Assembly: GCA_965250005.1 (NCBI GenBank)
Contig: OZ252279.1
Coordinates: 270,001-302,000, forward strand
Length of the DNA stretch: 32,000 nucleotides
Direction of reading: 5' to 3'
Source of the DNA: Demequinaceae bacterium
Lineage (GTDB): Bacteria > Actinomycetota > Actinomycetes > Actinomycetales > Demequinaceae
Below the pieces are notes generated by a model. It ran no database searches. It was not told the origin of the DNA and worked only from the letters and a program-made list of their open reading frames with translations. A program made the translations under genes and the position numbers. This document shows, in pieces, positions 7,650 to 31,602 of the stretch (position 1 is the stretch's first letter; each line of letters starts with the position of its first letter).

Positions 7650-9098
7650 CTAGGCCGAATGCTCGGCCAGGCAAGCGTCCAAGTTCTTCTTTGCCGCAGC
7701 CTCGGTAGCCTTCGCTTCCTTGAGGTTTTCCTGACGCTCCGCGAGGCGCGCCTTGACGTCGGGGAGTTTGGCAGTCTCATCCTTGATCCGCTTGTCGACG
7801 CTCGCGGCGATGTCCTTGAGGTCCGCGACCTTGATGAGCTCGCCGTCGAGTTTTGCGAACTGCACGCCGCCCGAGGTCCCGACAGACGGGCCCTTCCGTG
7901 CATCGGCGAGGTCCTTCTTGCGTGCCTTGAGGTCCGCGATGCGGCCCTCTTGAGCGGCCACGTTCGCCTTGGCCGTCGCCACTAGGTCTGCGCGGCCCTT
8001 TGCGATCTTCTTGGCGGACGCCCACGCTTTGCGCTTGGGCTCGCATTCTCTCGGGGTTGAGGCACCGCCACTGCCGCGCTTCTTCCAAACAAACCACACG
8101 ATCGCCACGATGATGGCGAGCAGGAGTAGCCAACCGAATATCGAACTGCCACTGCCGTCCGACGAGGCGCCGCCTTCGGACTTGCCGCCGTTCGACGCGT
8201 TGTCGTCCGCATCCGTGTCATCGTCCGAGGATTCGGTTCCGGATATCTCAAGAGTGATGGTGTCGCCCATGTGATAAAGATCCGTGGCCGTGCGCGGCAC
8301 GCTCGGATAGGCCGTGACGATGGACTCGCAGGTGTTGCAGTCTCCGTACTCACCGGCGTGCGTGTGCGAAGCGAATCCGTAGGTCCAGTCGGTGCCGCCG
8401 TACGACGCGAGGGCCTTGGTGTCGACCGCAGCTACCACCCAGTCGTCCGCAACGTAGACGGCGCCGTCGAACGCGAGCTCATCAACGCTGCTTTCCGTTT
8501 TCACAAGCGCAAAATCGAGCGGCAAGCCTCCTGCCTCGATCGTGCTCGCGACGAGTGATCCGCCCTGCCAGGTGTCCCCGGGGAACGCCGCGTCCGCGAT
8601 CCACCCGGTCATGCCGGGAAACCCGATGACAAAGTCAATCTGCGACGTCAGCGAGGGAACAGAGGCGCCGCGCGATGTTGGCATTGCGCGCGACGCGATG
8701 AAGAAGGCATATTCGTTCGTGTCGACCACGCCGTGGCCGGCGATGGTGGTGAGAGTCGCCTCGTTCTCGAGCGCGTTGACGAGCGACGCGTATCCTGCGG
8801 CTCCGGGCCGGATGACCGCGGCTCCGATGTAGTCGGGCGTCGCACCAGGGTTCGTGTCGCGGGGGAGAGTCGCCACTCCTCTGGGGTTGTCGCCGTAGCG
8901 GAACGACTGCACGTCCGGCACCGTCTGCAGGAGATCGGTGATGTCCTGTACTACGCCGTCGCTGATATCCGCTCGGGAGATCACCTGGATCGCCACGGGA
9001 AGGTCCTGGACCGAGGCGGTCGCGGCGGTTGTCACCGCAGCGGATGCGACCAGCGTCCCGGCCAGCGATGCGGCGATTACAAGTGCGAGCTTCTTCAT
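7650..9098 (-). CDS. Secreted/membrane-anchored protein of unknown function with cytoplasmic coiled-coil tail
   Basis: ATG 9098 is preceded by GGGGAGGG. The protein has a Sec-type signal peptide (MKKLALVIAASLAGTLVASAAVTTAATA) and an ectodomain of about 290 aa containing HTHAGEYGDCNTCE. A D/S/G-rich linker, a TM helix (IFGWLLLLAIIVAIVWFVW, followed by KKRG) and a K/A/E-rich tail of about 140 aa follow. The upstream 174 codons of track ORF 7650-9620 were rejected. Confidence 0.75.
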   Translation of the reverse strand: MKKLALVIAASLAGTLVASAAVTTAATASVQDLPVAIQVISRADISDGVVQDITDLLQTVPDVQSFRYGDNPRGVATLPRDTNPGATPDYIGAAVIRPGAAGYASLVNALENEATLTTIAGHGVVDTNEYAFFIASRAMPTSRGASVPSLTSQIDFVIGFPGMTGWIADAAFPGDTWQGGSLVASTIEAGGLPLDFALVKTESSVDELAFDGAVYVADDWVVAAVDTKALASYGGTDWTYGFASHTHAGEYGDCNTCESIVTAYPSVPRTATDLYHMGDTITLEISGTESSDDDTDADDNASNGGKSEGGASSDGSGSSIFGWLLLLAIIVAIVWFVWKKRGSGGASTPRECEPKRKAWASAKKIAKGRADLVATAKANVAAQEGRIADLKARKKDLADARKGPSVGTSGGVQFAKLDGELIKVADLKDIAASVDKRIKDETAKLPDVKARLAERQENLKEAKATEAAAKKNLDACLAEHSA

Positions 9099-9167
9099 CG
9101 GCCCTCCCCAGCGTGAGTTTCTGCGAACGTACCAGCTACTACGGCGGGACGCCAATGCGCGCGCCCC

Positions 9168-10618: not shown

Positions 10619-11344
10619 GTGGCTGACGGCGGCAAGAAAATCCCGGAGTCTATCTTCGCTGACGACAACGGCGAGGCCGATGCTCGCCTGGCCCAAGCGC
10701 TCATTCGGCACGGGGCAGGCAAAGGCAGCTTCGCAGAGGTGGTGGACGCACTCGCGTATGCGCGCGTTCTGGTGCCTATCCTCGCTGACGGCGAGGAGCG
10801 CCACATCGGCAAGCACGGGATCGAACAGGACCACATTGCCACCACCGGCGTCGTCGCCGTGGAGATGCCCGACGGTCGCGCAGCGCTCCCCATCTTCACC
10901 GATGTGGCGGCCATGGCGGCGTGGAACCCGGACGCGCGCCCCATTCCCGCCGAGGGCCCGCGCGCCGCGCTCGCAGCGATCAGCGAGGACTGGTCCGTGC
11001 TGATCCTCAACCCAGGCAAGGAGACACTACCGATTCCGCGCCCGGCGGTGTGGGCACTTGCGCAGGGCAACCCTTGGCAGCCCGCAGTTCTTGACGGCGA
11101 TGTGGCAGCCGACGTGCGCGCCGGAATCGTTGCCGCCATCGAGACGGACGACGCCCTGATTGCCGTCGACGCTGTTGCCGGCGGGGGAGCAGAAATCACG
11201 GTAGTCGCGCAGATCGTGCCGGGGCTGTCCGCCCCTGAACTCTCGGCGCTTGTTGAGCGCATCCAGGAGCAGATCGCGAGTGCAACCGTGGTGGCAGAGC
11301 GCGTGGACAGTATCCAACTCAAGCTCGCGCAGGCGGACGCCTAG
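10619..11344 (+). CDS. SseB family protein
   Basis: 241 aa. The pattern ARVLVP...G...A(L)PIFTD..A...W matches my recollection of SseB-like proteins found next to actinobacterial his genes. Confidence 0.6.
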   Translation: MADGGKKIPESIFADDNGEADARLAQALIRHGAGKGSFAEVVDALAYARVLVPILADGEERHIGKHGIEQDHIATTGVVAVEMPDGRAALPIFTDVAAMAAWNPDARPIPAEGPRAALAAISEDWSVLILNPGKETLPIPRPAVWALAQGNPWQPAVLDGDVAADVRAGIVAAIETDDALIAVDAVAGGGAEITVVAQIVPGLSAPELSALVERIQEQIASATVVAERVDSIQLKLAQADA

Positions 11345-12090
11345 CACTGGGCGAGGTCGACGACCCCCAGCTTGTCCTGCTCGAGGAAGTCGTGCAGCAG
11401 GCTCACCGGAACAATGAAGCTGCGGTCCACGAACACCTCTGTCCCGCCCTCGTCGATCGTTCCCGCGTAGACCACGCCAACAACTTCCCAGTCCACGTTG
11501 TACACCGCGGAGCCGGACGATCCGGGCTTGGTTGCGGCGGAGGACTCGAATACGAACGCGGTGTCGCCCAGGGTGTCGTCCTGTTGCGCGACAATGCGCC
11601 CCACCGTAGTAGTGAGACTGCCGCCGCCGGGGAAACCGACCACGTAAACCGTGTCGCCAATCTCTGGGTCTGTATCCGCGAGCGTGGCGTAGTACGTGAA
11701 GGGTTCCGGCGACGTGATCAGCGACAAGTCGGCATTAGTGGCAATTCGGGTGCCCTCGGTTATCACGTGCGAGTAGCCGTCATCGATGGCCCTCAGGGTA
11801 AGGAAGTCATGGTTCTCGACGACGTGCCAGTTGGAAATGACCGTGAACTCGTCGATTGCGAACGCGCTTCCGTCGAAGTCGCCCTCGCATCCGAAGTTCT
11901 CCACCTTCACGGCCGCCAGTTCTCCGGGGTTGTAGCCGAGCGAACTCGAGCGCTGGAACGTGGGAATTTCCGCCGGGTCAACTTTCGTGACCCAGTCAGT
12001 CTCGAGCGGCGCTGGAGCGGTGGGCACTTGTGCGCACGCGGCGAGCGCGAAGACGCCAGCAAGCGCCGCTGTGGCGCGCGCGCGAGTCAC
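11341..12090 (-). CDS. Trypsin-fold (S1, Trypsin_2-like) serine protease lipoprotein, paralog P3
   Basis: GTG 12090 overlaps the A3 stop (GTGA). The lipobox is FALAAC. The triad contexts are SNWHVV, NADLSLI and KPGSSGSAV. Conserved Cys residues lie at NFGCEG and as the very last residue (LAQC-stop). Confidence 0.85.
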   Translation of the reverse strand: MTRARATAALAGVFALAACAQVPTAPAPLETDWVTKVDPAEIPTFQRSSSLGYNPGELAAVKVENFGCEGDFDGSAFAIDEFTVISNWHVVENHDFLTLRAIDDGYSHVITEGTRIATNADLSLITSPEPFTYYATLADTDPEIGDTVYVVGFPGGGSLTTTVGRIVAQQDDTLGDTAFVFESSAATKPGSSGSAVYNVDWEVVGVVYAGTIDEGGTEVFVDRSFIVPVSLLHDFLEQDKLGVVDLAQC

Positions 12091-12674
12091 GGTGCGTCCT
12101 TCAGCGCGGCCAACTCGGCGAGCTCGGCCGCTTCCGTTGCGATGTACCCGTCGAAGTCTGCGTCGATGTCCCGGCAGTACGCGTTCACCGTGTTGCCCAC
12201 GGAGCGCACGCTCGAGTACGTGTAGTAGCCGATTTGCAGCACAAAGTCGATGTGCTCGTTCTGGGCGTGGGCGCACTCGATGAGATATGGCGCCTGGAAG
12301 TCGTAGTTCTCCGCAAACTCCTCGGCCAATTCGACCTCGTATCGTCTTAGAAGCTCTGCTTCGAGTGCTGCGAGCAGGTCGATCTCGGACTGTTCCCGCG
12401 CTTCCTCCGCGTCCCTCGCCTGCGTGTTCGATTCGTCGCGCTGAACCTCAAGATCAGCGACGACGCCCTCGAGTTCTAACGTTCGCGTGTTCCATGCTTG
12501 CAGTGTGACCGCGAGGTATCCGACGGCAGCAACGAGTGTCAGACCCAGAAGGCTGGCGATTACCACAACGTTGATTCGGAACGCGCGTCGGTCAATGAAC
12601 TTCACGCGCGCCGGGACGAGCGCGGGCAGCGGGCGGGCGGGCTGCTTTTCGGGAATGCCCGTCACGTTGGTCAC
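12087..12674 (-). CDS. Bitopic membrane coiled-coil protein, family A (C-x32-C), paralog A3
   Basis: GTG 12674 overlaps the B2 stop (GTGA). A basic cluster (KFIDRRAFR) precedes the TM helix INVVVIASLLGLTLVAAVGYLAV. An E/A/L-rich region and a C-terminal CAHAQNEH...VNAYC module follow. Confidence 0.75.
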   Translation of the reverse strand: MTNVTGIPEKQPARPLPALVPARVKFIDRRAFRINVVVIASLLGLTLVAAVGYLAVTLQAWNTRTLELEGVVADLEVQRDESNTQARDAEEAREQSEIDLLAALEAELLRRYEVELAEEFAENYDFQAPYLIECAHAQNEHIDFVLQIGYYTYSSVRSVGNTVNAYCRDIDADFDGYIATEAAELAELAALKDAP

Positions 12675-13186
12675 CCTGCCGTGGCTGCTGTCGAGTCGGC
12701 GATCGCCGCAGCGCACGCCTTGTCGAGGGAGGCTCGTTGAGAGTTCTTCGAACTGGACACGCCCGAGTAGTAGCGCTCGGCGAGGTCAAGCCGGCCCATC
12801 CCGCACGCGTTGAGCCGGCTGGCGATGTCGCGAAGAATCGAGGTCCGCTCGTTTGCCGCATCGATGTCATCCTGCAGGCCGCGAGCTTTGCGGTCCGTGT
12901 TGATTCGTTGCTCGTCGAAGGTATTGAACGCGGACGATTGATAGGCGACGGTCGCCTGCGCAACGCCAATCTCCACGCCAACGGTGACCGCTCTCGCTTC
13001 GAGGGAGGCGACTGACGCTTCGGCATTTCGTATTTCGCTCCACAGCCACCACCCGGTGGCGAGCAGCGCGACGGACGCGAAGCCCACGACCAGGAGCACC
13101 GTGCGGAGCGTCAATCGTTTGCGTGGGTGCGGTCGGGCCCCGGGCTCGACGTCCGGGCTCGCTGGTGCAATCGGCGGTGTTGTCAT
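12671..13186 (-). CDS. Bitopic membrane coiled-coil protein, family B (C-x29-C), paralog B2
   Basis: ATG 13186. The N-terminus is Pro-rich, HPRKRLTLR precedes the TM helix TVLLVVGFASVALLATGWWLW, and the C-terminal module is LNACGMGRL...LDKAC. Confidence 0.75.
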   Translation of the reverse strand: MTTPPIAPASPDVEPGARPHPRKRLTLRTVLLVVGFASVALLATGWWLWSEIRNAEASVASLEARAVTVGVEIGVAQATVAYQSSAFNTFDEQRINTDRKARGLQDDIDAANERTSILRDIASRLNACGMGRLDLAERYYSGVSSSKNSQRASLDKACAAAIADSTAATAG

Positions 13187-13211
13187 TTCAGTTTTTCACC
13201 GGGCGCACGGA

Positions 13212-13952
13212 CTAGCAGGCAGCGGCATTGTTCCTCAACAGGGAGTCGTCCGCCAGAATGTTAATAAGGATTGAAACGGGCACCATGTACGAGCTCGCGG
13301 CGACTGCCTCGTCGTCGTCGCTCGCGTAAATGACGCCGACGACGTGGCCGTCTTTGCCGTATACAGCGGATCCTGATGATCCCGGCTCGATCTGTGCGGT
13401 TGTTTGGAACACGAATTCCGATTTCTCGATAACGTCGTCGGTCTTGCCGACCACAACGCCCGTGTCCACGCGAAGCTCGTCGCCGCGCGGATAGCCTGCG
13501 GTAACGATCTCGTCGCCCCGCCCCGGGTCCGTGCTCGCGAGACTCACCCACAGGTCAAGGGGCTCTTCGGTAATGATGACGCCGATATCCGCAATATCGG
13601 AGACGGTGGAGCTTACAACCGTGATGTTGCGTCCGTCGTAGCCAGTGACTTCGAGCGCGAAGCGGCCGTCAATGACGTGCCTGTTGGTGATGATGGTGTG
13701 GTCGTCGATTGCGAATCCCGAACCTGTACCGATTCCCTCGCACCCGTCGTTGCGTACGCGGTAGGCAGCGCGCTCAGGGATCGAGAAACCGAATGGCGCA
13801 TCGAGCGCGTCCTGCGCTAGGGGGGAGGGAGATACTTCTGGGATCCAGTCTTCCCGAAGCGCAACGGGGGCCTGGGGGACTACAGAGCACGCCGCGAGTG
13901 CCACCAGGCTGCCAGCGCTGGCGAAGGCGAATGCCCATTTTCGAGCGCTCAT
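13212..13952 (-). CDS. Trypsin-fold serine protease lipoprotein, paralog P2
   Basis: ATG 13952 overlaps the A2 stop (ATGA). The lipobox is VALAAC. The triad contexts are TNRHVI, IADIGVI and EPGSSGSAV. Cys residues lie at NDGCEG and as the last residue (NAAAC-stop). Confidence 0.88.
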   Translation of the reverse strand: MSARKWAFAFASAGSLVALAACSVVPQAPVALREDWIPEVSPSPLAQDALDAPFGFSIPERAAYRVRNDGCEGIGTGSGFAIDDHTIITNRHVIDGRFALEVTGYDGRNITVVSSTVSDIADIGVIITEEPLDLWVSLASTDPGRGDEIVTAGYPRGDELRVDTGVVVGKTDDVIEKSEFVFQTTAQIEPGSSGSAVYGKDGHVVGVIYASDDDEAVAASSYMVPVSILINILADDSLLRNNAAAC

Positions 13953-14509
13953 TCGAGTTCCTCCGCTTCTTCAGCGATCAATTCTGAGGCCTGGGCCCGC
14001 GCGGACTCGCAGTAGTCGTTCACGCTGTCGCGGTACCGGTAGTACACGTAGAGGGGGTACACCTGGCGGCGCTTGACGTACGCGACGTGTTCGCCCTGCT
14101 CGGTTGCACAATCAGCCAGCGCGAACGAAACATTCGAGTACATGTCTTGATAGTCCTGGGCGGCCGCCTTGTCGTTGGCGAGGGCAACAAGATCCCGCTT
14201 GGCAAAGCGGAGAAGTTCTGAGAACTGGTAGTGGTCACCCACGAGGCCGGTGAGAGTGGCTCGCTCCTGCTTGAGCTGGTCCTCGATGGCCGCGCGAGCC
14301 TCCTTTGCTTCGCTCACGTGCTGACCCCACAGGAACGTCACCACTCCCAGATAGATTGTGACCAGGGCGAGCAGACCGAGTAGCGACATCAGGACAATCT
14401 TGAGTGCGCGCCCTTTGCCATTGCGGCCCGTGGTGGCGACGGTGCCTGATCCTTCTGGCGACTCGACCGGGGTGAGCGGTGGAGGTGGTTGCGGGGGAGT
14501 AATCGTCAT
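13949..14509 (-). CDS. Bitopic membrane coiled-coil protein, family A (C-x32-C), paralog A2
   Basis: ATG 14509 lies 4 nt after the B1 stop. The N-terminus is Pro-rich (PPQPPPPLTP), the TM helix is IVLMSLLGLLALVTIYLGVVTFLW, and the C-terminal module is ADCATEQGEH...VNDYC. Confidence 0.78.
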   Translation of the reverse strand: MTITPPQPPPPLTPVESPEGSGTVATTGRNGKGRALKIVLMSLLGLLALVTIYLGVVTFLWGQHVSEAKEARAAIEDQLKQERATLTGLVGDHYQFSELLRFAKRDLVALANDKAAAQDYQDMYSNVSFALADCATEQGEHVAYVKRRQVYPLYVYYRYRDSVNDYCESARAQASELIAEEAEELE

Positions 14510-14513
14510 GGCT

Positions 14514-15065
14514 TCAGCCGTTCAGAGAATTGTACTGGCTAAGCGCGGACGTGCACTGACTGTTGATGGAGTTTTCCGTGCTCCGGAGCGACGATGCGCT
14601 TTGCTTCCACATTTTCGCGGCTAGAGCCTGACGGCTCGCGGCGCACTCGCTTAGCGCGGCGGCGGTCCCCCGCCAGGCTGTCGTGATGTCTTGTTCGGCG
14701 GTGGTGTCCTCGGCGAGCGTCGCAGCTTTCTCAATAGCGGACTCACGCTGGCTCTCGAAGAGCGTGCTCTCGGCCTCCAACTCGGCGATGTCGGCCAAGA
14801 CTACCGAGAGGGAGATGCCGTCCGCCTCTGCTTGGCCCTCGATGAGGGCGCTCTCAGCTTTCCAGTAGTCGATGCCGAAGTACATGGCGACGCTGCCTGC
14901 GATCAGAATCACTGCCAGGGAAATCAGCCCAACTCTTGCGTGTGTTGCGCGCTTCCAGCGCCACGGCCACGGGAACGCGCGTTTGGGGCTTCCTTGGTCC
15001 ACGACCGCGACAGCGACCGTAGGCTCGCGGTCCGAGGGTAACGAGGGGGCCCCTGGCGACGTCAT
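14514..15065 (-). CDS. Bitopic membrane coiled-coil protein, family B (C-x29-C), paralog B1
   Basis: ATG 15065 is preceded by GAAGGGA. RWKRATHAR precedes the TM helix VGLISLAVILIAGSVAMYFGI, and the C-terminal module is LSECAASRQ...INSQC. Confidence 0.75.
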   Translation of the reverse strand: MTSPGAPSLPSDREPTVAVAVVDQGSPKRAFPWPWRWKRATHARVGLISLAVILIAGSVAMYFGIDYWKAESALIEGQAEADGISLSVVLADIAELEAESTLFESQRESAIEKAATLAEDTTAEQDITTAWRGTAAALSECAASRQALAAKMWKQSASSLRSTENSINSQCTSALSQYNSLNG

Positions 15066-15151
15066 TGTGTTCCCTTCACGGGTACGCGCATTTGCGGCGA
15101 TCCGAGTACAACCTAGCGGCTGTCTGGTTTAGCCGCATCCGCTGGCGGCGA

Positions 15152-15871
15152 TTAGGCGCAATCGGCGGGAATTGGGATGAGGAGTCGCTCTTGCGCCAGC
15201 AGGTCCTGAAGCACCGAGACCGGAATCATGAAGCTTTGGTTTGCGTCTGTCATGGCGTACATGACGCCCACAACTTGGCCAGCTTGGTTCAGAACAGGGG
15301 AGCCTGAGGACCCCTGTTCGACAATCGCGGATGTGCCCAGAACGGTTCCCACCGCTGCGCCGAGGGGGTCGGGCGTCTCGCCCAGGACCACGCCGGGGAT
15401 GGTCGTCAGGCGCCCTCCGCCGGGGTAGCCCACAACCGTGATCGCGTCGCCGGTGGCGGGATCGCTGGCGGCAAGCACCGAAAACGCATCGAGACTCTCT
15501 TCGATACGGAGAACGGCAAGATCTGCAACTGTCGTGCTCTCGCTTGCCGTCGCGCGGAAAATCCTGCCGTCGTAGGTTGAGAGTTCGAGTTCGGTCGAAT
15601 CTGCGATGAGGTGCGCGCTCGTGACGAGCGTGTGTTCATCCACCGCGAACCCCGTGCCTCGCTTGAGGAACCCGCATCCAACGTTGCGGATGCGCACGGT
15701 CATTCGTTGGGCGGCACCAAAGCCATCAGGCGACAGTATCTCCGGCAGGCCTCCCGGGGAGATGGTCGGCTCGGGCACGAAGTCCGAAGGCAACGGTTCA
15801 GGCAACGCCGGAACCACACCGCAGGCAGCGGCTGTCAATGCTGCTACCGCGAGCAGCGTGAACCGGCGCAC
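15152..15871 (-). CDS. Trypsin-fold serine protease lipoprotein, paralog P1
   Basis: GTG 15871 lies 2 nt after the A1 stop. The signal peptide RRFTLLAVAALTAAAC has a less canonical lipobox. The triad contexts are TSAHLI, VADLAVL and EQGSSGSPV. Cys residues lie at NVGCGF and as the second-to-last residue (PADCA-stop). The upstream 19 codons of the track ORF were rejected. Confidence 0.82.
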   Translation of the reverse strand: MRRFTLLAVAALTAAACGVVPALPEPLPSDFVPEPTISPGGLPEILSPDGFGAAQRMTVRIRNVGCGFLKRGTGFAVDEHTLVTSAHLIADSTELELSTYDGRIFRATASESTTVADLAVLRIEESLDAFSVLAASDPATGDAITVVGYPGGGRLTTIPGVVLGETPDPLGAAVGTVLGTSAIVEQGSSGSPVLNQAGQVVGVMYAMTDANQSFMIPVSVLQDLLAQERLLIPIPADCA

Positions 15872-15873
15872 GG

Positions 15874-16572
15874 CTATCCCGTCAACTGCTCTTGGTAGAC
15901 GGTCGCTGCATTGATCGCGGCGGTGCAAATCTGATTCACCGCGGCCTCGAAATCAGCGACCTCTTGGGCGCCGTATAACTCAATGTTCTTGAGGTAGCCC
16001 ACGAGCGTCTTGTGATCCTCAACGCAGCGTGTGAGTGTGAGCGCGACCGCGCCCCCAATGCTCGCGAGTTCACGCAAGTAGTCGATCTCTTGCTGCGCGT
16101 CCAGCGCGCTGTCACGTTCCTGCGCCTTCTCGTCGGCGAGCGCGAGTAGGCGGGCTTGCGCGGTATCGAGCTGCTGAGTGAGCAGGTCGAGTTGCTGTTG
16201 TTGGGCCAGGACCTGCTCTTCTTCGGTCGCGAGTCGCTCGCCGATGTCGTATGCGGCGACAGTGAGTTCGTCCGCGCGCTGCTGCCATGAATTAGACGAA
16301 ATCCACAAGTAGACGGTGAGGGCGAGGAGCAGAGCGGCAATACCGCCAAGGGAACCCAACGCGACCTGCCAGCGCCGACGCTGGGTCAGCGGGATGCGGT
16401 CGAGCGCGTGGGTGTGGTCCGTGACGGGAGTGAGGAGCGCAGTTTCGTCATTCGCGGGATCGCGCGTAAACGCGTTCGAGGACTCGACATGGCCGGGCCG
16501 GTAGATCGCGTTCGTATCCGCATCCTGGCGCGCCCGCCGGTTGTCCTCAGGTGGTGTGGTTCCCAGATTCAC
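15874..16572 (-). CDS. Bitopic membrane coiled-coil protein, family A (C-x32-C), paralog A1
   Basis: GTG 16572 overlaps the DUF1844 stop (GTGA). The cytoplasmic N-terminus is about 65 aa, and QRRRW precedes the TM helix QVALGSLGGIAALLLALTVYLWI. A Q/L/E-rich heptad-like stretch (EEEQVLAQQQQLDLLTQQLDTAQARLLALADEKAQ) and the module TRCVEDH...VNQIC follow. Confidence 0.78.
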   Translation of the reverse strand: MNLGTTPPEDNRRARQDADTNAIYRPGHVESSNAFTRDPANDETALLTPVTDHTHALDRIPLTQRRRWQVALGSLGGIAALLLALTVYLWISSNSWQQRADELTVAAYDIGERLATEEEQVLAQQQQLDLLTQQLDTAQARLLALADEKAQERDSALDAQQEIDYLRELASIGGAVALTLTRCVEDHKTLVGYLKNIELYGAQEVADFEAAVNQICTAAINAATVYQEQLTG

Positions 16573-16931
16573 GACACTGCTCCCGTGTATTTTTCTCCGG
16601 GACCCTCGCCCGGTGCATCGGGAAAAGCCGAAACTTCCCGGAACGCCAACTGTACGCTCCTGAGCCCGTCACGCAACGCTCGGGCATGGGTATCGCCCAG
16701 GTCGGGGGCGCCAGCCGTCACGAGGCCTGCGAGGGCGGTGATGATTCGCCGGGCCTCGTCCAAGTCCTTGTGCTGCTCGCCGTCCTCCGCGAGGCCGCAG
16801 CGTAGGGCGGCGGCGCTGAGCAGGTGGACACCTACAGTGGTCACCAGTTCAACGGCCGATACGTCCGCGAGGTCGCGTGCGGACTGTGCGTCGGTGTTGC
16901 TGGCCGTGGGCAACCCAGGAATGTCGTTCAT
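16569..16931 (-). CDS. DUF1844-like protein
   Basis: 120 aa. LLSAAALRCGL...KDLDEARRIITALAGL...LRDGLRSVQLAFRE...PGEGPGEKYTG matches my recollection of the DUF1844 family, which sits divergent from infC in actinobacteria. Confidence 0.65.
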   Translation of the reverse strand: MNDIPGLPTASNTDAQSARDLADVSAVELVTTVGVHLLSAAALRCGLAEDGEQHKDLDEARRIITALAGLVTAGAPDLGDTHARALRDGLRSVQLAFREVSAFPDAPGEGPGEKYTGAVS

Positions 16932-18636: not shown

Positions 18637-19530
18637 GTGCCTCACAACATGACGGAACGCCCCGACAGGGCAGCGCCGCTCGCGGTCACGCTATCCAACG
18701 TGAAGGCTGATCGGGTTAAGCAAGTGCGCGCACTGTTGGGGCGTTCTGCGCGTTCCAGGGCCGGACAGTTCGTGGTCGAGGGACCCCAGGGCGTGCGTGA
18801 ACTGGTGGCGCACGCCCCTCAACGTGTCCGCGATGTCTACCTTTCCGAGTCCGCACACGCACGCGAGCCCGGAATTGGCGCATCCGCGCTTGCCGCAGGC
18901 CTTTTTGTCCACCTAGGCACGGATGAGGTGCTTGCCGCTATGAGCCCCGACAGTCAGGGGACGCTTGCCGCGGCGAGCATGTGGCGCGCCACGCTCGAAG
19001 AGGACCTTCCGCCAAAGCCGCAGCTCGTGGCCGTACTGAACGAGGTGCGCGACCCAGGCAACGTCGGCACAATAATTCGGGTGGCTGACTCTGCGGGCGC
19101 CGACGCGCTGATCCTCGCGGGGGAGACGGTGGACGTATTCAATCCCAAGGTGGTGCGCGCCACCGCAGGCAGCCTGTTCCACCTGCCAGTGATTCAGGAC
19201 GTGACCTTGGCGGCTGCTGCCGCGGCACTGCGGGACCGCGGGGTGCAGATTCTGGCGACCGCGGTCTCCAGCGACGACCAACTAGGAAGCGCCGAGGGCG
19301 CTGGGTCCGCGGAATCGCTTGCGCAGCCCACTGCGTGGCTACTCGGAAATGAATCGCGGGGGCTGTCCGAAGAACACCTAGCGCTTGTCGACCACGCGGT
19401 CCGTATCCCAATTTTCGGGTATGCGGAGTCTATGAATGTTGCCACCGCGGCGGCGGTTGTGTTCTACCAGTCGAGGTTGACAAATCTCACTCCCCACGAC
19501 GCCAAGAAAGCGCCTAGGCTCTCTCCATGA
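18637..19530 (+). CDS. TrmH/SpoU family RNA 2'-O-methyltransferase
   Basis: The SpoU motifs are present: NEVRDPGNVGTIIRVADSAGA, LLGNESRGLS and IPIFGYAESMNVATAAAVVFY. The start is GTG 18637 or ATG 18649. The position after rplT matches tsnR-like genes in other actinobacteria. Confidence 0.85.
   Translation: MPHNMTERPDRAAPLAVTLSNVKADRVKQVRALLGRSARSRAGQFVVEGPQGVRELVAHAPQRVRDVYLSESAHAREPGIGASALAAGLFVHLGTDEVLAAMSPDSQGTLAAASMWRATLEEDLPPKPQLVAVLNEVRDPGNVGTIIRVADSAGADALILAGETVDVFNPKVVRATAGSLFHLPVIQDVTLAAAAAALRDRGVQILATAVSSDDQLGSAEGAGSAESLAQPTAWLLGNESRGLSEEHLALVDHAVRIPIFGYAESMNVATAAAVVFYQSRLTNLTPHDAKKAPRLSP
19515..19520 (+). promoter_or_regulatory. -10-like TAGGCT 6 nt before DGC1 ATG, inside the 3' end of the TrmH-family gene
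   Basis: cgccTAGGCTctctccATG. Confidence 0.35.
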
Positions 19531-21173
19531 CCGTAGTCGCCGATGATGGCCGCGACCCGGGAGGTCGCCTTCCGCGCTTCTCTTTTGTGGTGGGCGTGGT
19601 GTCCGCGATTCTGGTCCTGCAGTTGCTCGCAGTCGCACTCGTGGGCTTCTTAGTTGAGCGCGACGCTGAGAGCGCGACGGAAGATGCTTTCAACTACATC
19701 GGCGATGCGACAACAGTGCGTGTGGTCCACTTTCTCGAACCCGCCCAGCGCTTGGTGTTTCAGACGGCCTACTCGCTCGAGAATGGCTTCGGAAGCGAAG
19801 ATCCCGACGAGCTCGCCGAGCACCTCTTTGAGGAAATCCACTTCTATCCGCAACTTGCAGGAATATTCGTGGGCTACCCGAATGGCGACTTCGTCTTTGT
19901 ACGTCAACTCGTCACTGGCTTCGAGGTCAAAATCATCAGCGCGGAACCCGAGCGCCGCGTGACCGTCTACCTGTACGATGACCGGTACACGCTGCGATCG
20001 TTTTGGGTGCTCACTGACGACATGTACGATCCGCGCGCGCGCGTTTGGTACGAGGACGCGTCCCGGGACCCCCACGCGATTTGGACGGATCCGTACGTTT
20101 TCCACTCCTCGGGAGCTCCCGGCGTCACCATGGCACAGGCCGTATACGGCGAGGACGGAGAGATCAAAGCGGTGGTGGGCGCGGACATCGAATTATCGGA
20201 AATATCCACGTTCCTAGACGGGCTACCGGTCGGTTCGGACGGCGAAGCCTTTGTGCTCACTGGCGAGCGTGAGGTTATCGCCGCGCCTAGTCGCTACGAC
20301 GAGTTGGTGGTTGCCGCACGCGGAGAAGCGGGGCTCACCGTTTCTGCGGAGGCCCTGGGGCTTGAGCTTCCGGCGCTGCCCGAAGAGTTCAACCGAGAAA
20401 TCGGCGTGTTTGGTCGCAACGGCGATTACGTGACGCTCGAGCGGGGCTTCCCGCGGGAATCCTTGATCGGCTGGACGATTCACCTGCGGGCAACTGAAGC
20501 GGGGCTCTCCCCAGGCATCGGCTCGTTCCAGCGGACCAGCCTGTGGTACTCGGGCGCGATAGCGCTGCTGGTATTGGCGGCGTCCTTTTTGGTCTATCAA
20601 CTCCGCCATCCGCTTGTTGAACTCCAGGCGCGCGCCTCCACGGATGACCTCACGAGGCTCGCCAACCGCTACGAGTTCCGCAGGCGCGGACAGGTCATGG
20701 TGGACGCGGCGTACGAGCGCGCAGAACCAATCTGCGTCGCCATGTTCGACTTGGACGATTTCAAGCGCATCAACGACACTGACGGGCACTCCGCTGGCGA
20801 TCGTGCTCTCCGTACGGCGGCTGATTCGCTGCGCGACGGCACCGGGCCGGATGACTTGGTCGCACGGTTCGGCGGAGACGAGTTTGTTGTTGTCAGGCTG
20901 GTGGGAGATGTGGCCGTGCCCTATCAGGCAGTCGAGCGCATACGCGACCATATGGAGCGCGGCATCAACAAGCGTCGCCGCCCCGGGGAGATGATTGGGG
21001 TTACCGCGGGCTTCGCGCTGAGCGGTCCGGACTATCGCGACCTGAAGGCTCTCGCTCAGGCAGCCGACGCTGCGTTGGTCGCGGGCAAGCGCGCGGGCAA
21101 GGGACAGACGCACGGAGCGGACGATGCTAGCGAGGGCACCGAACGGCGCAGATCTCGCTCCAAAATCCTCTAG
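19527..21173 (+). CDS. Membrane diguanylate cyclase, Cache-like ectodomain + GGDEF (DGC1)
   Basis: ATG overlaps the TrmH-family stop (ATGA). The N-terminal TM helix is followed by an ectodomain of about 300 aa with YDPRARVWY...WTDPYVF, as in dCache_1 sensors. After a second TM helix comes DDLTRLANRYEF ... FDLDDFKRINDTDGH ... RFGGDEF. Confidence 0.85.
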   Translation: MTVVADDGRDPGGRLPRFSFVVGVVSAILVLQLLAVALVGFLVERDAESATEDAFNYIGDATTVRVVHFLEPAQRLVFQTAYSLENGFGSEDPDELAEHLFEEIHFYPQLAGIFVGYPNGDFVFVRQLVTGFEVKIISAEPERRVTVYLYDDRYTLRSFWVLTDDMYDPRARVWYEDASRDPHAIWTDPYVFHSSGAPGVTMAQAVYGEDGEIKAVVGADIELSEISTFLDGLPVGSDGEAFVLTGEREVIAAPSRYDELVVAARGEAGLTVSAEALGLELPALPEEFNREIGVFGRNGDYVTLERGFPRESLIGWTIHLRATEAGLSPGIGSFQRTSLWYSGAIALLVLAASFLVYQLRHPLVELQARASTDDLTRLANRYEFRRRGQVMVDAAYERAEPICVAMFDLDDFKRINDTDGHSAGDRALRTAADSLRDGTGPDDLVARFGGDEFVVVRLVGDVAVPYQAVERIRDHMERGINKRRRPGEMIGVTAGFALSGPDYRDLKALAQAADAALVAGKRAGKGQTHGADDASEGTERRRSRSKIL

Positions 21174-21221
21174 GTGCGCCGGGTGTGGTGATTCTCTCGT
21201 CAGGATGGGCGCGCGGGAACC

Positions 21222-21227
21222 TACACT
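21222..21227 (+). promoter_or_regulatory. -10-like TACACT 6 nt before DGC2 ATG (leaderless candidate)
   Basis: aaccTACACTgaagaaATG. Confidence 0.4.
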
Positions 21228-21233
21228 GAAGAA

Positions 21234-22841
21234 ATGACGCGAGCGAAGACGTCTGTCGCTGAGCGGCTCGGATCGCGCCGCCTCATGCGCGCTGTTGCGG
21301 GCGTTGCCGCCTCGGTTCTTCTCCTCCAACTGGTGATCACGGTGGTCGCGCTCGTCCAAATTGACAAGAGAAACAACGCTGCGGCCGAGGAGGCATTCAA
21401 CTTTGTTGGCTCCGCGACTGTCGAGAGCGTCGGGCGGTACCTCGACGACGCCAGCCAGGCCGTCGAGTCATTGGCGGTCGACGTAGCCGGCAGCGACCTG
21501 GACATATATGACGGCTCGTTGCAGTTCGCGTTGTACCAACACCTCCGTAGCCAGGACTACCTGAGCGCGCTCTACGTTGGCTTTGATAACGGCGACTTCG
21601 CGATTCTGCGCCGCGACCCGGATAGCCGCGGCTACAAATTGCGCCAGATCGTATCTGAGCCGATACGAGTGGTATCGGACGAGTACTACGACATCTCGTT
21701 TGTGTACTTGTCGAACGAGATCTTGGTCGACGGCTATGACCCTCGCGCGCGTCCGTGGTACGCGCTGGCGACGGGCAGTGTTGGCGCGGCGTGGACAGAT
21801 CCGTACGTCTTTCACGAATCCCAGCGGCCCGGCGTGACGGTCACGATCGCCAGCCGTACTTTTTTTGGCGCGCCAGCCGTTGCCGGTGCGGACTTGCAGC
21901 TCGATGAACTTGGCGAAATCTTGGACGACCTGCCCTTGGGTGAAGACGGGGAGGCATTCTTGCTGTCCTCGGACAGGACGGTGGTCGCTGCGCCCAGCAG
22001 GTACGCGAATCGGATCGTCAACTATGCGAAGGACGTGGGTTCCACCATCCCCGCAGAGAAGTTGGGCATCCTCACCTCCGCTCCATTGACGGGAAGCAGC
22101 GAACTGCGCGCGTTCGGCACGGATGGGGATCACGTCACGCTCGAGACTCGAATTCCCAACGACAATGGCGCGGACTGGATACTGCACATTAGGGCCACCG
22201 CGTCCGGGATAGCGCCCGAACTTGAAGCCGCTCAAAGCACCATTCTGTGGCTGACGGTGCCGAACGTGGTGCTGCTGTTCATTGCGGCAGGGCTGTTCGC
22301 GATCATGTTGCGCCCCATCAGAGACATGCGCACGCGCGCTGAAACGGATTCGCTCACAGGGTTGTCGAATCGCCACGAGTTCTTCACAGAGGGCCAGCGG
22401 ACGGTGGCGTCCGCTCAGGCGGACGGCCGCGCGCTTGCCGTTGTCACGCTCGATCTTGACAATTTCAAGGCGGTCAACGACAGATTCGGTCACGGCGTGG
22501 GGGATGAGGCACTGCGTACGGTGGGGCGCGCGATCGCTGAAGTGGTGCGTACCAGAGACGTCGCGGGGCGACTGGGAGGCGACGAGTTTGCGATCGTTCT
22601 CAATCTCGACAAGGGCTCCAACGTCCGGAAAATCGTAGACGGTATTCGCACTCGCGTGTCGACCCGCATCACGAGCGTGTTCCCCGCTGCGATCCGCCCG
22701 GGCGTAACCGCAGGGTTCGCGGTGCTGAACAAGGAGCAGGCGTCGCTTGAGCGCGTGCTGCGCGCGGCCGACGAGGCGATGATTGAGGGCAAGCGGGTGA
22801 GCAAGGGCGCGACATACCCTGCCAGGCGCAAGACCACGTAG
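21234..22841 (+). CDS. Membrane diguanylate cyclase, Cache-like ectodomain + GGDEF (DGC2, with RxxD I-site)
   Basis: Paralog of DGC1 (YDPRARPWY...WTDPYVF; DSLTGLSNRHEF; LDLDNFKAVNDRFGH). RTRD lies exactly 5 residues before GGDEF (RTRDVAGRLGGDEF). Confidence 0.87.
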   Translation: MTRAKTSVAERLGSRRLMRAVAGVAASVLLLQLVITVVALVQIDKRNNAAAEEAFNFVGSATVESVGRYLDDASQAVESLAVDVAGSDLDIYDGSLQFALYQHLRSQDYLSALYVGFDNGDFAILRRDPDSRGYKLRQIVSEPIRVVSDEYYDISFVYLSNEILVDGYDPRARPWYALATGSVGAAWTDPYVFHESQRPGVTVTIASRTFFGAPAVAGADLQLDELGEILDDLPLGEDGEAFLLSSDRTVVAAPSRYANRIVNYAKDVGSTIPAEKLGILTSAPLTGSSELRAFGTDGDHVTLETRIPNDNGADWILHIRATASGIAPELEAAQSTILWLTVPNVVLLFIAAGLFAIMLRPIRDMRTRAETDSLTGLSNRHEFFTEGQRTVASAQADGRALAVVTLDLDNFKAVNDRFGHGVGDEALRTVGRAIAEVVRTRDVAGRLGGDEFAIVLNLDKGSNVRKIVDGIRTRVSTRITSVFPAAIRPGVTAGFAVLNKEQASLERVLRAADEAMIEGKRVSKGATYPARRKTT

Positions 22842-22890
22842 CTGACGGCCCGGACGGAGCGGCGTTCCCCCACCATCGGACGTGTCTGCG

Positions 22891-22896
22891 TACAAT
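22891..22896 (+). promoter_or_regulatory. -10-like TACAAT 6 nt before DGC3 ATG (leaderless candidate)
   Basis: ctgcgTACAATccccacATG. Confidence 0.45.
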
Positions 22897-22902
22897 CCCC
22901 AC

Positions 22903-24678
22903 ATGGCACGAACCCCTAGGAGGGCGCCCGCCGGCGGGCGCAGAGGTCTAGAGTTTTCTGCTGTGGTGGCGGTTGTGGGCGCCGTCCTGCTGCTGCAAGT
23001 CGCGGCGTCTAGCTTCGCCGGGGCGGCCGCGCTCCGCGACGCGGACACTGCTACGGGAGATATCTTCGTGTTTACGGCAGATGTGACCGCTGAACGCATC
23101 CTCGACTTCCTCGACCCGGCCATCGAGGCCTCGTGGAGTGCGGAATCGGCGATTCTCAATGCCGGCCCCCTGGACTTCTTCGGGGCGGACCCCTTCGCTG
23201 ACCTAGAGGACCCGCTCGCAGCGTTAGAGGATCCGATCTTTGATGAGGACGGCTTCCTGTTTGGAGACGTGGACCCGCTGGTCGCGACGGTTGACACTTT
23301 GGCCATAGAAGACTTCAGGGCGGCGATGGCTAACGACGTGCAACTTTCGGGGATTCTCGTGGCGTTCGCTGACGGGACCGTCTATGGCGTGTCGCGAGGA
23401 CCCACCGGCTGGACCGAGGTCACGGGTAGGCCCGGCACCGCCGAGCCGTATCTGAGCGTGTTCCACGGAGTGGCGGGAGCGCCCGCCGAGCCCGAGGTGT
23501 GGGAGCGAGGTCACCCCTACATCAAGACGTCCTGGTTTGCGGCCGGAGCGGCGGCGGTGGAGCCGACCTGGTTTGGCCTCACACCTTCCGAAATCGGCGT
23601 GCAGCCTGTTCTCTCCGTTGTTACAGGTGTGCGCGGCTGGGATGGGGAACTGATTGCAGTCGTGCGGGTCGAACTCGAGAACCTCATTCTTTCGGAATTC
23701 TTGACGGCCCTGCCTATCGGTGAGGATGGCGAGGCGTTCCTGCTCTCTGAGGAGCGAGGAGTGATCGCTGCGCCAGAGCAGTACAACGCCGACCTTGCGG
23801 CGCTGCGAATTGACGCCGCGGGCCCGGAGCTTCAAGGTGACGGACCGGGCGTGGATACTGAGGGCGGCCAGCCGAGCGGCCCCCCTGACGGCCCCGTTAA
23901 CAGCGGTCACGACGCTACCGAGCTGGGCATTGAGGTCCCCGATGCAGACTCGATTGATCGGGTCCACGAGCAGGGCGACTATCTGGTGTTCGAGACGCCA
24001 TTGTCGGAGGACGGAAACCCGAACTGGTCGGTGCACTTGCGCGCCTCCGCCGGCGGCATCGCCCCGGGCATCGCCTCGTTCGAGCGGACCATGCTGACCT
24101 ACTCGATCGTGATCGGTGCGGTTGTTGTTCTGGGAGCCCTGCTGGTGATGTTGCTCCGCGGGCCGCTGCAGCGCCTTCGCGAGCGCGCGGCGCACGATAC
24201 CCTCACGGGCCTGGTCAACCGCGGCGAGTTCATGGCACGCGGCTCAGAAATGCTTGAGGCGGCGGAGAGGCGCGGCGGAACCGTCGCGGTCGCGATGTTC
24301 GACCTTGACAACTTCAAGCGGGTTAACGACACCCTTGGCCACGACGCGGGAGATGACGCACTGGTCGTGACGGCGCGCGCTCTCGAGCGCGGCTCTGGAC
24401 CGCGAGACGTGGTGGGCCGCTTCGGTGGTGACGAGTTTGTGATTGCGCACTGGATTGCCGACGGTGAAAACGCGGTCGGTGCGATCGAACGGATCCGTGC
24501 GCACGTGATGACGGAGCTTCGCAGCGGGCGGCTGCATGACTCGGACGTAGGCGTTTCAGCGGGCTTCTCTAGCTCTGGCGCAGGCGTGAATGATCTGGGC
24601 GCGCTCATCAGCGCCGCGGACGAGGCACTCGTGGCAGGCAAGGCCGAAGCGAAGGGCACCACGTACGCCGCGCGCTAG
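22903..24678 (+). CDS. Membrane diguanylate cyclase, divergent Cache-like ectodomain + GGDEF (DGC3)
   Basis: DTLTGLVNRGEF, FDLDNFKRVNDTLGH and RFGGDEF are present. The ectodomain is alignable to DGC1/2 (LPIGEDGEAFLLSEERGVIAAP) but carries two inserts. ATG 22903 was chosen because TACAAT lies 6 nt upstream. The track's GTG 22882 is the alternative start. Confidence 0.82.
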   Translation: MARTPRRAPAGGRRGLEFSAVVAVVGAVLLLQVAASSFAGAAALRDADTATGDIFVFTADVTAERILDFLDPAIEASWSAESAILNAGPLDFFGADPFADLEDPLAALEDPIFDEDGFLFGDVDPLVATVDTLAIEDFRAAMANDVQLSGILVAFADGTVYGVSRGPTGWTEVTGRPGTAEPYLSVFHGVAGAPAEPEVWERGHPYIKTSWFAAGAAAVEPTWFGLTPSEIGVQPVLSVVTGVRGWDGELIAVVRVELENLILSEFLTALPIGEDGEAFLLSEERGVIAAPEQYNADLAALRIDAAGPELQGDGPGVDTEGGQPSGPPDGPVNSGHDATELGIEVPDADSIDRVHEQGDYLVFETPLSEDGNPNWSVHLRASAGGIAPGIASFERTMLTYSIVIGAVVVLGALLVMLLRGPLQRLRERAAHDTLTGLVNRGEFMARGSEMLEAAERRGGTVAVAMFDLDNFKRVNDTLGHDAGDDALVVTARALERGSGPRDVVGRFGGDEFVIAHWIADGENAVGAIERIRAHVMTELRSGRLHDSDVGVSAGFSSSGAGVNDLGALISAADEALVAGKAEAKGTTYAAR

Positions 24679-29146: not shown

Positions 29147-29251
29147 AGCCCACCTGGAAAATACGACGGTGCGCCCCGCGACAGTCGCGCATTGTGTTCA
29201 TCGACAACAGGCGGCTGCGGCGCGGGAACCCGTGAAGTCATACCCTTTGGA

Positions 29252-29257
29252 TACTGT
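29252..29257 (+). promoter_or_regulatory. -10-like TACTGT 6 nt before M1 ATG (leaderless candidate)
   Basis: ggaTACTGTtgctgcATG. Confidence 0.35.
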
Positions 29258-29263
29258 TGCTGC

Positions 29264-30532: not shown

Positions 30533-31602
30533 CCTGGAGTTGTGTTGACGCGTTCTCGGGAGCGGGGGGCCTTGCGCTCGGCCTCGAAGGAGTCGGGTTC
30601 AGAATCCTGTATTCATTCGACAAGGATGAAACGTGCATCGAGACGATCCGCGCGAATATAGAACTGAATGAGCGCTCGGCCGCGGCCGTAGGAATCGAAG
30701 ACTTGCTCGGTGGCGAATTGCTGCGACGCCTCGGATTGGAACCGGGTGAGCTTGATTTGCTCGCTGGCGGCCCGCCATGCCAAGGCTTCAGCACGCAACG
30801 TGGCGGCGAAGATGAGGATCTCCGGAATGCGCTAGTGACGGACTATGGCCAGCTTGTTGTCGAGGTGCGGCCGAGAGTCGTGCTGATGGAGAATGTGCCC
30901 GGGCTCGGAGGCCGCAGAGGGAGCGCAATCCTTGCAGCGTTGCGAGCGACCCTGGAGGACGCGGGTTACAGACTTCAAGAGACCGTACTCGATGCTCAAG
31001 ATTTCGGAGTGCCGCAACGTCGGCGCCGGATCTTCCTCGTGGGGTTTCGCGAGGACCTTGACGTCGCACTCGGTTTCAAGTGGCCCGTGCCGCTCCGCGA
31101 GCGCAAGACTGTCCGCGAGGCGATTGGCCACCTTCCACCTCCCCCTGACGGCGGCCGGCCGCACCCGTCGATTCCGAATCACCGGGCGGACAATCTTTCT
31201 GACCTGAACAAAGCTCGGCTAAGGGCACTTGGAGAGGGCCAGTCGCGAGTTGATCTACCCGAACACTTGCTCGCGGCATGTCACCTCAGATCCGCAGATC
31301 TGATTGGGCACAGAAACGTCTACGGCAGGATGGAATGGGACTCCGTTAGCCCCACGATCACCGCCAGGTTCGATTCGTTCACTCGCGGGAAATTCGGGCA
31401 CCCTGACCAGCTCAGAACGGTGTCTCTTAGGGAAGGCGCGCTCCTCCAGGGATTTCCGGAGGATTTTGTATTCGTCGGTACCAAAGTAGAAGTCGCGCGG
31501 CAGATCGGAAATGCGGTTCCTCCACCCCTCGCACGCGCAGTGGGATCGTCAATTGCCGCGAGTCTCGCTTCCATTCGCCAGCCAGCGACGTCGGGTTCTT
31601 GA
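30529..31602 (+). CDS. DNA (cytosine-5)-methyltransferase M2
   Basis: Motif I is VDAFSGAGGLALG, motif IV is GGPPCQGFS, and motif VI is ENVPGL. Motif VIII is QRRRRIFLVG, motif IX is SLREGALLQGFPEDFVF, and motif X is GNAVPPPLA. GTG 30529 overlaps the M1 stop (GTGA). The track start TTG 30502 is the alternative. Confidence 0.88.
   Translation: MTWSCVDAFSGAGGLALGLEGVGFRILYSFDKDETCIETIRANIELNERSAAAVGIEDLLGGELLRRLGLEPGELDLLAGGPPCQGFSTQRGGEDEDLRNALVTDYGQLVVEVRPRVVLMENVPGLGGRRGSAILAALRATLEDAGYRLQETVLDAQDFGVPQRRRRIFLVGFREDLDVALGFKWPVPLRERKTVREAIGHLPPPPDGGRPHPSIPNHRADNLSDLNKARLRALGEGQSRVDLPEHLLAACHLRSADLIGHRNVYGRMEWDSVSPTITARFDSFTRGKFGHPDQLRTVSLREGALLQGFPEDFVFVGTKVEVARQIGNAVPPPLARAVGSSIAASLASIRQPATSGS

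Follow-up and report, generated by a model that had tools for sequence, protein, structure and literature searches.

A lipoprotein S1 protease and a co-encoded bitopic two-cysteine protein: a conserved gene pair, probably an undescribed cell-envelope proteolysis module, in a Demequinaceae genome

The subject of this study is a gene array in a 32,000-nucleotide stretch of the genome of a Demequinaceae bacterium (assembly GCA_965250005.1, contig OZ252279.1, positions 270,001 to 302,000), referred to here as the window. Between positions 16931 and 11341 nine co-directional open reading frames (ORFs) are found on the minus strand, in the order DUF1844-A1-P1-B1-A2-P2-B2-A3-P3, where the P genes encode S1 proteases with lipoprotein-type signal peptides and the A and B genes encode small proteins with a single hydrophobic segment. 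The A-P pair is probably an undescribed module for proteolysis in the cell envelope. The preferred reading, with a probability of about 0.55, is that A and P are cognate partners on the outer face of the membrane, where A docks or regulates P and is possibly also its substrate. That the two are functionally coupled outside the cytoplasm is highly probable, and the specific docking or regulatory role of A is a more tentative assignment, somewhat short of even odds. This reading is based on gene anatomy, on the homology of A and B, on the conserved pairing and its coupled gene junctions, and on topology signals and active sites that are intact in all three proteases. No paper on this gene pair was found in the literature, and for DUF1844 one incidental mention was found.

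The coordinates and junctions of the nine genes, as listed in a sequence-only reading of the window, are all reproduced. The DUF1844 gene (16569–16931, 120 residues) overlaps the start of A1 by four nucleotides and is followed by the bitopic partner A1 (15874–16572, 232 residues) and the protease P1 (15152–15871, 239 residues), both of the ancestral type. Each of the two accessory cassettes is opened by a short paralogue of the A family. The first cassette consists of B1 (14514–15065, 183 residues), A2 (13949–14509, 186 residues) and P2 (13212–13952, 246 residues), and the second of B2 (12671–13186, 171 residues), A3 (12087–12674, 195 residues) and P3 (11341–12090, 249 residues). The successive junctions are −4, +2, +86, +4, −4, +25, −4 and −4 nucleotides, such that the stop codon of A2 overlaps the start of P2 and A3 has four-nucleotide overlaps with both B2 and P3. 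The GC content at third codon positions of the nine genes in the chosen frames is 0.71–0.80, which equals that of hisA, infC and rplT, and the nine ORFs are therefore considered to be native coding genes; the overall GC content of the array (0.62–0.64) is on par with the flanks. P1, A3 and P3 could also start further upstream, and the alignments of homologues as well as the signal peptides favour the starts given above, which are those of the sequence-only reading.

Judged by their domain matches, P1, P2 and P3 are members of the peptidase S1/Trypsin_2 family (Pfam PF13365; 84.1, 68.4 and 66.0 bits, with E values of 2e-23, 1.4e-18 and 7.9e-18, at a gathering threshold of 27.6 bits). Their pairwise identities are 41, 35 and 38 %, close to the one third estimated earlier for P2 and P3. 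In P1 the lipobox cysteine is Cys17, followed by Cys66, the triad His87, Asp117 and Ser189 (in a GSSGS motif) and Cys238; the corresponding cysteines are Cys22, Cys71 and the C-terminal Cys246 in P2, and Cys19, Cys68 and the C-terminal Cys249 in P3, each with an intact triad. All these positions (in P1 numbering, the lipobox cysteine, Cys66, His87, Asp117, Ser189 and the C-terminal cysteine) are invariant in an alignment of 17 sequences, comprising P1–P3 and 14 homologues. Of the 111 P proteins of related loci, 110 have an intact triad, 109 have the lipobox cysteine and at least 102 a C-terminal cysteine; a lipobox-like pattern is recognized in 104. Ahead of the protease domain each of the three window proteins has a basic N-terminus, a hydrophobic stretch and the lipobox cysteine, and nothing else; the chains end 10–30 residues past this domain. 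The predicted lipoprotein signals are MRRF..LTAAAC (P1), MSARKW..LAAC (P2) and MTRAR..LAAC (P3), and by this signal-peptide and lipobox pattern P1–P3 are predicted bacterial lipoproteins. The earlier description of three S1 proteases of about 240 residues with a lipobox and an intact triad is thus borne out, and the proteases of all three copies are, judged by their active sites, catalytically competent.

The best NCBIfam match of P1, P2 and P3 is the MarP family NF033740 (80.6, 63.4 and 50.1 bits, compared with a curated cut-off of 250), and the alignment spans only profile positions ~160–205 to 358 of 390, being the protease part. P1–P3 are placed outside the curated MarP family because their scores are under the cut-off and because the domain of four transmembrane (TM) helices is absent. 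The best match of P1 in the Protein Data Bank (PDB) is the protease domain of Rv3671c/MarP (3K6Y, 3K6Z, 3LT3; E 1.7e-16). The alignment with 3K6Y extends to the N-terminal strand, where Cys66 is paired with the first cysteine of MarP; the C-terminal cysteine of P is at an equivalent distance from the end as in MarP, but it is outside the aligned stretch. The disulfide bridge of MarP is presumably Cys214–Cys395, and the position of Cys214 agrees with the residue count on the 3K6Y chain. No PDZ match is found in P1–P3, and the NCBIfam HtrA/Deg models reach 20–59 bits, with cut-offs of 400–800; as the PDZ domain is absent, P1–P3 are not HtrA/Deg proteins.

The A and B proteins each have one hydrophobic segment, with four to five lysine and arginine residues on its N-terminal side and one on its C-terminal side, and a C-terminal pair of cysteines with the spacing C-x32-C in A1–A3 and C-x29-C in B1 and B2. 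A1 has a disordered cytoplasmic tail (residues 1–59, including NDETALLTPV..ALDRIPL), a TM helix at ~70–88, a helical stalk, the LADEKAQ..D motif, Cys183 and Cys216. In the shorter proteins the TM helix and the cysteines are at ~47–65, Cys141 and Cys171 (B1), at ~38–56, Cys134 and Cys167 (A2), at ~25–43, Cys128 and Cys158 (B2) and at ~36–54, Cys134 and Cys167 (A3). The AlphaFold2 model of A1 (mean predicted local distance difference test score, pLDDT, 73) has helices 62–151, 156–195 and 202–231 after the disordered tail 1–59, and that of B1 (pLDDT 72) has helices 35–119, 125–154 and 157–182 after a disordered N-terminal tail. The two models agree in having a disordered N-terminal tail, one long helix comprising the TM segment and the stalk, and two further helices. 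The positive-inside rule favours an orientation with the N-terminus in the cytoplasm in 130 of 140 members of the A/B family, and the reverse orientation in none. With this topology, the lipobox of P and the invariant cysteine pairs of both proteins, the predicted location of both ectodomains on the outer face agrees with the sequence-only reading; such invariant pairs are commonly seen in actinobacterial proteins that are exported and have structural disulfide bridges.

That A and B share one bitopic, two-cysteine architecture had been noted before, and this part of the description is retained; the two are not lookalikes, as the sequence comparisons identify them as one homologous family. A2 and B1 are related at a blastp E value of 7e-6, and the alignment of the A1-type with the B-type profile (hhalign probability 98.9 %, E 1.5e-17) extends from the TM segment to the C-terminus with both cysteines in register. 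At E <= 1e-3, an exhaustive profile search of 1.84 billion protein representatives gives ~316 members of the family, of which 160 remain at E <= 1e-10, and A1–A3, B1 and B2 all match the family profile. A word-based homologue search with A2 recovered only A2 itself; the family became visible only through the exhaustive profile search. Both cysteines are invariant in an alignment of 128 sequences; the spacing is 32 in 101 of the 149 members listed, and in most members it falls within C-x25-36-C, with insertions up to x58. Conservation is concentrated in the ectodomain, namely in a juxtamembrane YL...W, in the segment Q-L-x-x-A-x-x-R-I-x-x-L-A-x-E-x-A-Q-x-x-D that ends the long helix, and around both cysteines. 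The family motif can be written LA-[DN]-E-x-A-Q-x-x-D, and the B-type proteins do not have it in full. The cytoplasmic tails are variable and Pro/Ala-rich, with lengths from ~10 to >250 residues across the family.

Two types of tail can be described. In the A1-type proteins of a Demequina-like clade, and only there, the motif NPANEETTVLTPV..ALDRIPL precedes the basic cluster (A1 residues ~35–59; window 16395–16470), and it may bind a cytoplasmic partner specific to this clade. The tails of the Cellulomonas-type A proteins are long, Pro/Ala-rich and unconserved.

In agreement with the earlier statement that no characterized family is recognized, A1–A3, B1 and B2 have no match above noise in the Pfam copy searched, in NCBIfam or in PADLOC. 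A comparison with the PDB by Foldseek gives only generic helical bundles and coiled coils, and the A-family profile finds only coiled-coil noise among the PDB sequences, where the helical domain of RipA (6EWY) does not appear at E <= 1. Since homology to the RipA stalk is not detectable, the resemblance of A to RipA is considered to be only architectural. For two A homologues PF28533 (DUF8429) is listed, which is a weak precomputed match to a family outside the Pfam copy searched, and it was not adopted as an assignment. One database representative (P0134, 464 residues) is apparently an A protein fused to a frameshifted P; most likely this is an artefact of assembly or gene calling at the four-nucleotide overlap and not a natural fusion.

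The pairing of A and P is conserved across genomes. A scan of one genome per species with the protease alignment produced 80 loci, and 86 loci (those of the scan, loci found earlier and the window) were annotated with hidden Markov models of the two families, A and P, and with the flanking proteins of the window. All scanned loci with a genus or order name are from Micrococcales; homologues of P2 are found in Demequina, Georgenia, Cellulomonas, Promicromonospora, Xylanimonas, Actinotalea and Myceligenerans. An A gene is directly upstream of P in every locus with upstream DNA available (~90 loci, mostly from Micrococcales), and in nearly all loci (~85, from several families) the A-P block is located between infC-(DUF1844) and sseB-hisA-hisH. 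Three metagenomic contigs (L086, L090 and L091) also have the pair upstream of sseB. The nearest relative of the window among the loci compared is an MFD metagenome-assembled genome (MAG; L001), the HisA of which is 87.5 % identical, and Demequina species come next.

At 87 of 109 A-to-P junctions an in-frame start codon is at −4, overlapping the stop codon of A. The start picker used in this count prefers the start nearest to the upstream stop; despite this preference, the share of 80 % is far beyond chance. The pair is also kept in unrelated surroundings, as observed for a Jiangellales MAG (L087, L088) and another assembly (L089), where A and P, again with the −4 overlap, are accompanied by ABC transporter, CsbD, DUF72 and lactamase-B genes, and where no his, infC, DUF1844 or sseB genes are found around them. 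These observations speak for the cognate pairing of protease and partner that the sequence-only reading had proposed. Clearly, the possibility that A/B and P are unrelated envelope genes which are neighbours by chance is effectively ruled out by the constant A-before-P order, the overlapping start codons, the retention of the pair after relocation and the copying of A along with P in duplications.

The number of A-P pairs varies from 1 to 4 among close relatives. In 63 of the 86 loci there is a single pair, which is always closest to A1 and P1; in all related loci, the first A gene has A1 as its best match. Many Demequina genomes have a second A-P pair, and a few MAGs near the window have A-P followed by B-A-P. 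The first P of other loci is 54–74 % identical to P1, whereas the accessory P proteins are only 30–55 % identical to the window proteins; the second protease of L001, the nearest relative, shares 55 % identity with P2, and for P3 no close orthologue is found among the related loci compared. Because the first P is well conserved and the accessory ones are diverged, the window is best described as an ancestral A1-P1 pair with two old accessory cassettes, and by these comparisons the two B-A-P cassettes are lineage-specific, faster-diverging additions. This replaces the earlier description of a B-A-P unit occurring 2.5 times. The only trace of duplication at the DNA level is a segment of 47 nucleotides around the catalytic-histidine motif (11816–11862 in P3, with copies at 13669–13715 in P2, 79 %, and at 15603–15649 in P1, 62 %; spacings of 1853 and 1934 nucleotides). 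Since nothing else is left of the duplication in the DNA, the amplification of the cassettes is old, as had been proposed.

A larger array is seen in L016 (MAG MFD05684.bin.2.93), in which DUF1844-A-P is followed by three B-A-P cassettes. In one accessory protease of this locus (~8013–8765) the triad residues are changed (His to Asp, Asp to Asn and Ser to Asn) and the cysteine pair is kept, such that it is a pseudo-protease; this paralogue is the one non-intact triad among the 111 P proteins.

DUF1844 had been counted as a member of the array. The gene in the window is a clear member of PF08899 (55.3 bits, E 7.2e-15, gathering threshold 27), and a DUF1844 gene is upstream of A in most Micrococcales loci; in about half of the loci it abuts or overlaps the start of A. 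Of 53 measured DUF1844-to-A junctions, however, 12 are longer than 1.2 kb, and the Jiangellales-type loci have no DUF1844 gene. DUF1844 is therefore a frequent syntenic neighbour that belongs to the infC neighbourhood, and it is not obligatory for the module. P is followed in Cellulomonas-type loci by an additional Gly-rich gene for 186–191 residues (8914–9474 in L004 and 1777–2352 in L091); the two proteins are 39 % identical to each other and have a faint Spore_YtfJ match and a C-terminal hydrophobic segment. This gene is absent from the window.

Because the pair is conserved and translationally coupled, and because both products carry outer-face signals, a stable cognate complex of A and P is proposed. 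In the mechanism envisaged, A and P would be translated from one message, A first and usually via the four-nucleotide stop/start overlap. A would cross the membrane once with its N-terminus inside, and its stalk would fold back as a three-helix bundle pinned by the invariant cysteine pair. P would be a lipid-anchored, disulfide-containing S1 protease on the outer face of the cytoplasmic membrane, which A would dock, position and gate, perhaps being clipped by P itself; by analogy with MarP and RipA, such a cut in A is conceivable. The targets of P may be envelope proteins such as those of cell-wall remodelling, in the way MarP processes RipA. The B-A-P cassettes would probably yield three-component variants with altered specificity or regulation.

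Several observations weigh against this reading. The physical binding of A and P, the direction of regulation and the substrates are inferred from gene and sequence data, and a single transcript for the array is inferred from gene spacing alone; the promoter and terminator scans of the locus gave counts no higher than those of the shuffled control. A diverges faster than P (mean p-distance 0.64 versus 0.42), which fits a scaffold or a substrate equally well as a specific regulator. The mirror-tree partial correlation of A and P is 0.61, and that of the unrelated neighbours SseB and DUF1844 is 0.63; because the control pair reaches this value, the correlation of A and P is not counted as evidence. 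The likeness to MarP is also less specific than the matches of P1 alone suggest, since the P-family profile finds the HtrA2 protease domain (8.6e-24) above MarP (1.4e-18) in the PDB, and for this reason 'MarP/HtrA-type S1 domain' is the safe wording.

It is possible, although speculative, that the docking partner goes further and acts as a disulfide-locked latch or sensor for P, through which envelope redox state or stress would be coupled to the proteolysis of wall-remodelling or surface proteins. The arrays would then be orthogonal two- and three-component modules with separate specificities, one of them with a dead protease.

A dedicated substrate function of A is rather unlikely, but it is the best of the alternatives. 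Here P would cut the ectodomain of A in the manner of a site-1 protease, further degradation would release or expose the tail, and a signal of the DegS-RseA type would reach DUF1844 or another cytoplasmic output. The bitopic N-in topology of A with its basic juxtamembrane cluster is compatible with this, as are the conservation of the tail motif in the Demequina-like A1-type proteins, the position of DUF1844 next to A in about half of the loci, and the cleavage of a MarP substrate beside a helical hairpin (PMC6628586). B2 has a weak anti-sigma match in NCBIfam (NF052375, E 0.009; 16 bits, cut-off 100). What is conserved in A, however, is the ectodomain, and the tails are predicted to be disordered (pLDDT < 50) and vary across the family, with the tail motif restricted to one clade. 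DUF1844, the candidate output, is absent from L087 and L089. No sigma factor gene, no anti-sigma domain (ASD/ZAS) and no site-2 protease gene is found near the cassette in the window, in agreement with the earlier statement on sigma factors; in one Cellulomonas locus a sigma-70 gene is ~4 kb away, which is not conserved. Both this lack of sigma factor and site-2 protease genes and the disorder and poor conservation of the tails weaken the resemblance to site-1-protease/anti-sigma pairs, which the sequence-only reading had pointed out.

Less probable still is an A protein that is a membrane-tethered inhibitor or an immunity-like protein, with the diverged tandem cassettes being an array for toxin/immunity-style competition. 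A partner gene that is upstream and translationally coupled would suit an inhibitor, and the fast divergence of A and of the accessory cassettes, the copy numbers of 1 to 4 in close relatives and the dead protease in one L016 cassette would suit competition. The lipobox, on the other hand, would tie P to the membrane of the producer itself, and the core pair occupies one housekeeping position, from infC to sseB-hisA, across several families, with a native composition in which both GC measures are as in the flanks. The Pfam and NCBIfam scans find no secretion-system, LXG/WXG or toxin-delivery domain, and PADLOC gives nothing for A/B. A defence-system assignment was considered separately and dropped, as PADLOC has only generic protease-domain matches for P.

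A role of A in the folding or maturation of P, as a membrane-bound pro-region acting in trans or as a disulfide scaffold which is needed only during export and lipidation of P, is improbable. The fixed A-first order with coupled translation and the invariant cysteine pairs in both proteins could be read in this way. Mature P has only ~50 residues before the catalytic domain and no large pro-region, whereas for S1 proteases that bacteria secrete, such as alpha-lytic protease, folding depends on pro-regions. HtrA/MarP-type domains, however, fold without pro-regions, as seen from the crystal structures of the isolated MarP domain, and the Pfam, NCBIfam and PDB comparisons of A reveal no resemblance to any known pro-region or chaperone.

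The array is embedded in chromosomal housekeeping DNA. One flank has dnaE, hisD, hisC, hisH, hisA and sseB, and the other has infC, rpmI, rplT, a SpoU-type methyltransferase gene, three dCache-GGDEF genes, pheS and pheT. P3 (minus strand) and sseB (plus strand) are convergent, with 3' ends overlapping by four nucleotides at 11341–11344, such that there is no space for a terminator between them. The three dCache-GGDEF genes, directly downstream of the methyltransferase gene (19527–24678, plus strand), are tandem paralogues encoding diguanylate cyclases of 548, 535 and 598 residues, and the nearest relative has at least two such genes at the corresponding place. Among the his genes a protein of 483 residues (7650–9101, minus strand) is encoded. 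It combines a signal peptide and a Ser/Asp-rich region with a C-terminal TM helix and a coiled-coil cytoplasmic tail rich in lysine and alanine. Pfam gives no convincing family for this protein; the sole match, to Plug, scores 25.3 bits (E 2.3e-5; cut-off 23.9) and covers an N-terminal stretch of 42 residues. The nearest relative has a gene for 473 residues at this place, without a Pfam match. At 29192–31602 (plus strand) a gene for a C-5 cytosine DNA methylase (446 residues) is followed by an overlapping ORF of 366 residues; the GC content of ~0.60, compared with 0.67–0.72 just upstream, suggests a restriction-modification island.

In actinobacteria, cell-wall hydrolases and the resistance to stress are under the control of MarP/HtrA-type proteases, and how these are regulated and find their substrates is still unclear, even for MarP of Mycobacterium tuberculosis. 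In the A-P pair a close relative of the MarP catalytic domain has a dedicated, translationally coupled membrane partner. This pairing is kept across cultivable Cellulomonas, Demequina, Georgenia, Isoptericola and Cellulosimicrobium, which allows direct tests in simple systems, and the copy-number variants together with the dead-protease paralogue provide natural material for tests of cognate specificity. The pair is limited to a modest clade and gives no sign yet of an unusual mechanism; it is a lead rather than a surprise.

When compared with known systems, P resembles MarP (Rv3671c) in its predicted extracytoplasmic, membrane-tethered location, in having the same type of catalytic domain and in having a cysteine at the extreme C-terminus. 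For marP, no neighbouring A-like partner gene is known. The anchors are different, as MarP has four N-terminal TM helices (PMC6628586, PMC12183614) and P1–P3 carry a lipoprotein signal peptide instead. The known MarP substrate RipA has a helical-hairpin coiled-coil domain, and it is cut after Val235, at the end of this two-helix stalk (PMC6628586). Genetically, MarP also cooperates with Erp, an envelope protein, in a stress pathway (PMC12324328).

HtrA, DegP and DegS share with P the protease fold and the GSSGS and T-N-x-H-V motifs (PDB profile matches of E 1e-23 to 1e-17); they have PDZ domains, whereas P, with ~240 residues in all, has none. DegS is anchored by a TM helix and P, by prediction, by a lipid. 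Like the predicted A, RseA, on which DegS acts from the outer side of the membrane, is a bitopic N-in protein. In contrast to RseA, A has no anti-sigma domain, there is no sigma factor or RseP-like gene near the array, and A is directly upstream of P and translationally coupled with it, an arrangement that rseA and degS do not have. The spl operon of Staphylococcus aureus likewise consists of tandem, diverged S1 protease paralogues, and SplD is among the PDB matches of P1. The Spl proteases, however, are soluble, secreted proteins, and no partner genes are interleaved with theirs, whereas in the window each protease gene has its own upstream membrane-protein gene. In the NfeD/STOPP-stomatin and FtsH-HflK/C systems a membrane protease is co-encoded with a single-pass, coiled-coil-rich partner, which regulates or scaffolds the protease; the stomatin partner is also cleaved. 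These proteases are of the ClpP-like S49 or the AAA+ metalloprotease type and their partners have SPFH domains, which A does not have, and no relation in sequence or fold is detected between these systems and A-P. A membrane protease with a co-encoded, helical single-pass partner is thus a known arrangement, as seen for DegS-RseA, NfeD-stomatin and FtsH-HflKC, and what is new here is the A/B partner family and the predicted anchoring of a MarP/HtrA-type domain as a lipoprotein.

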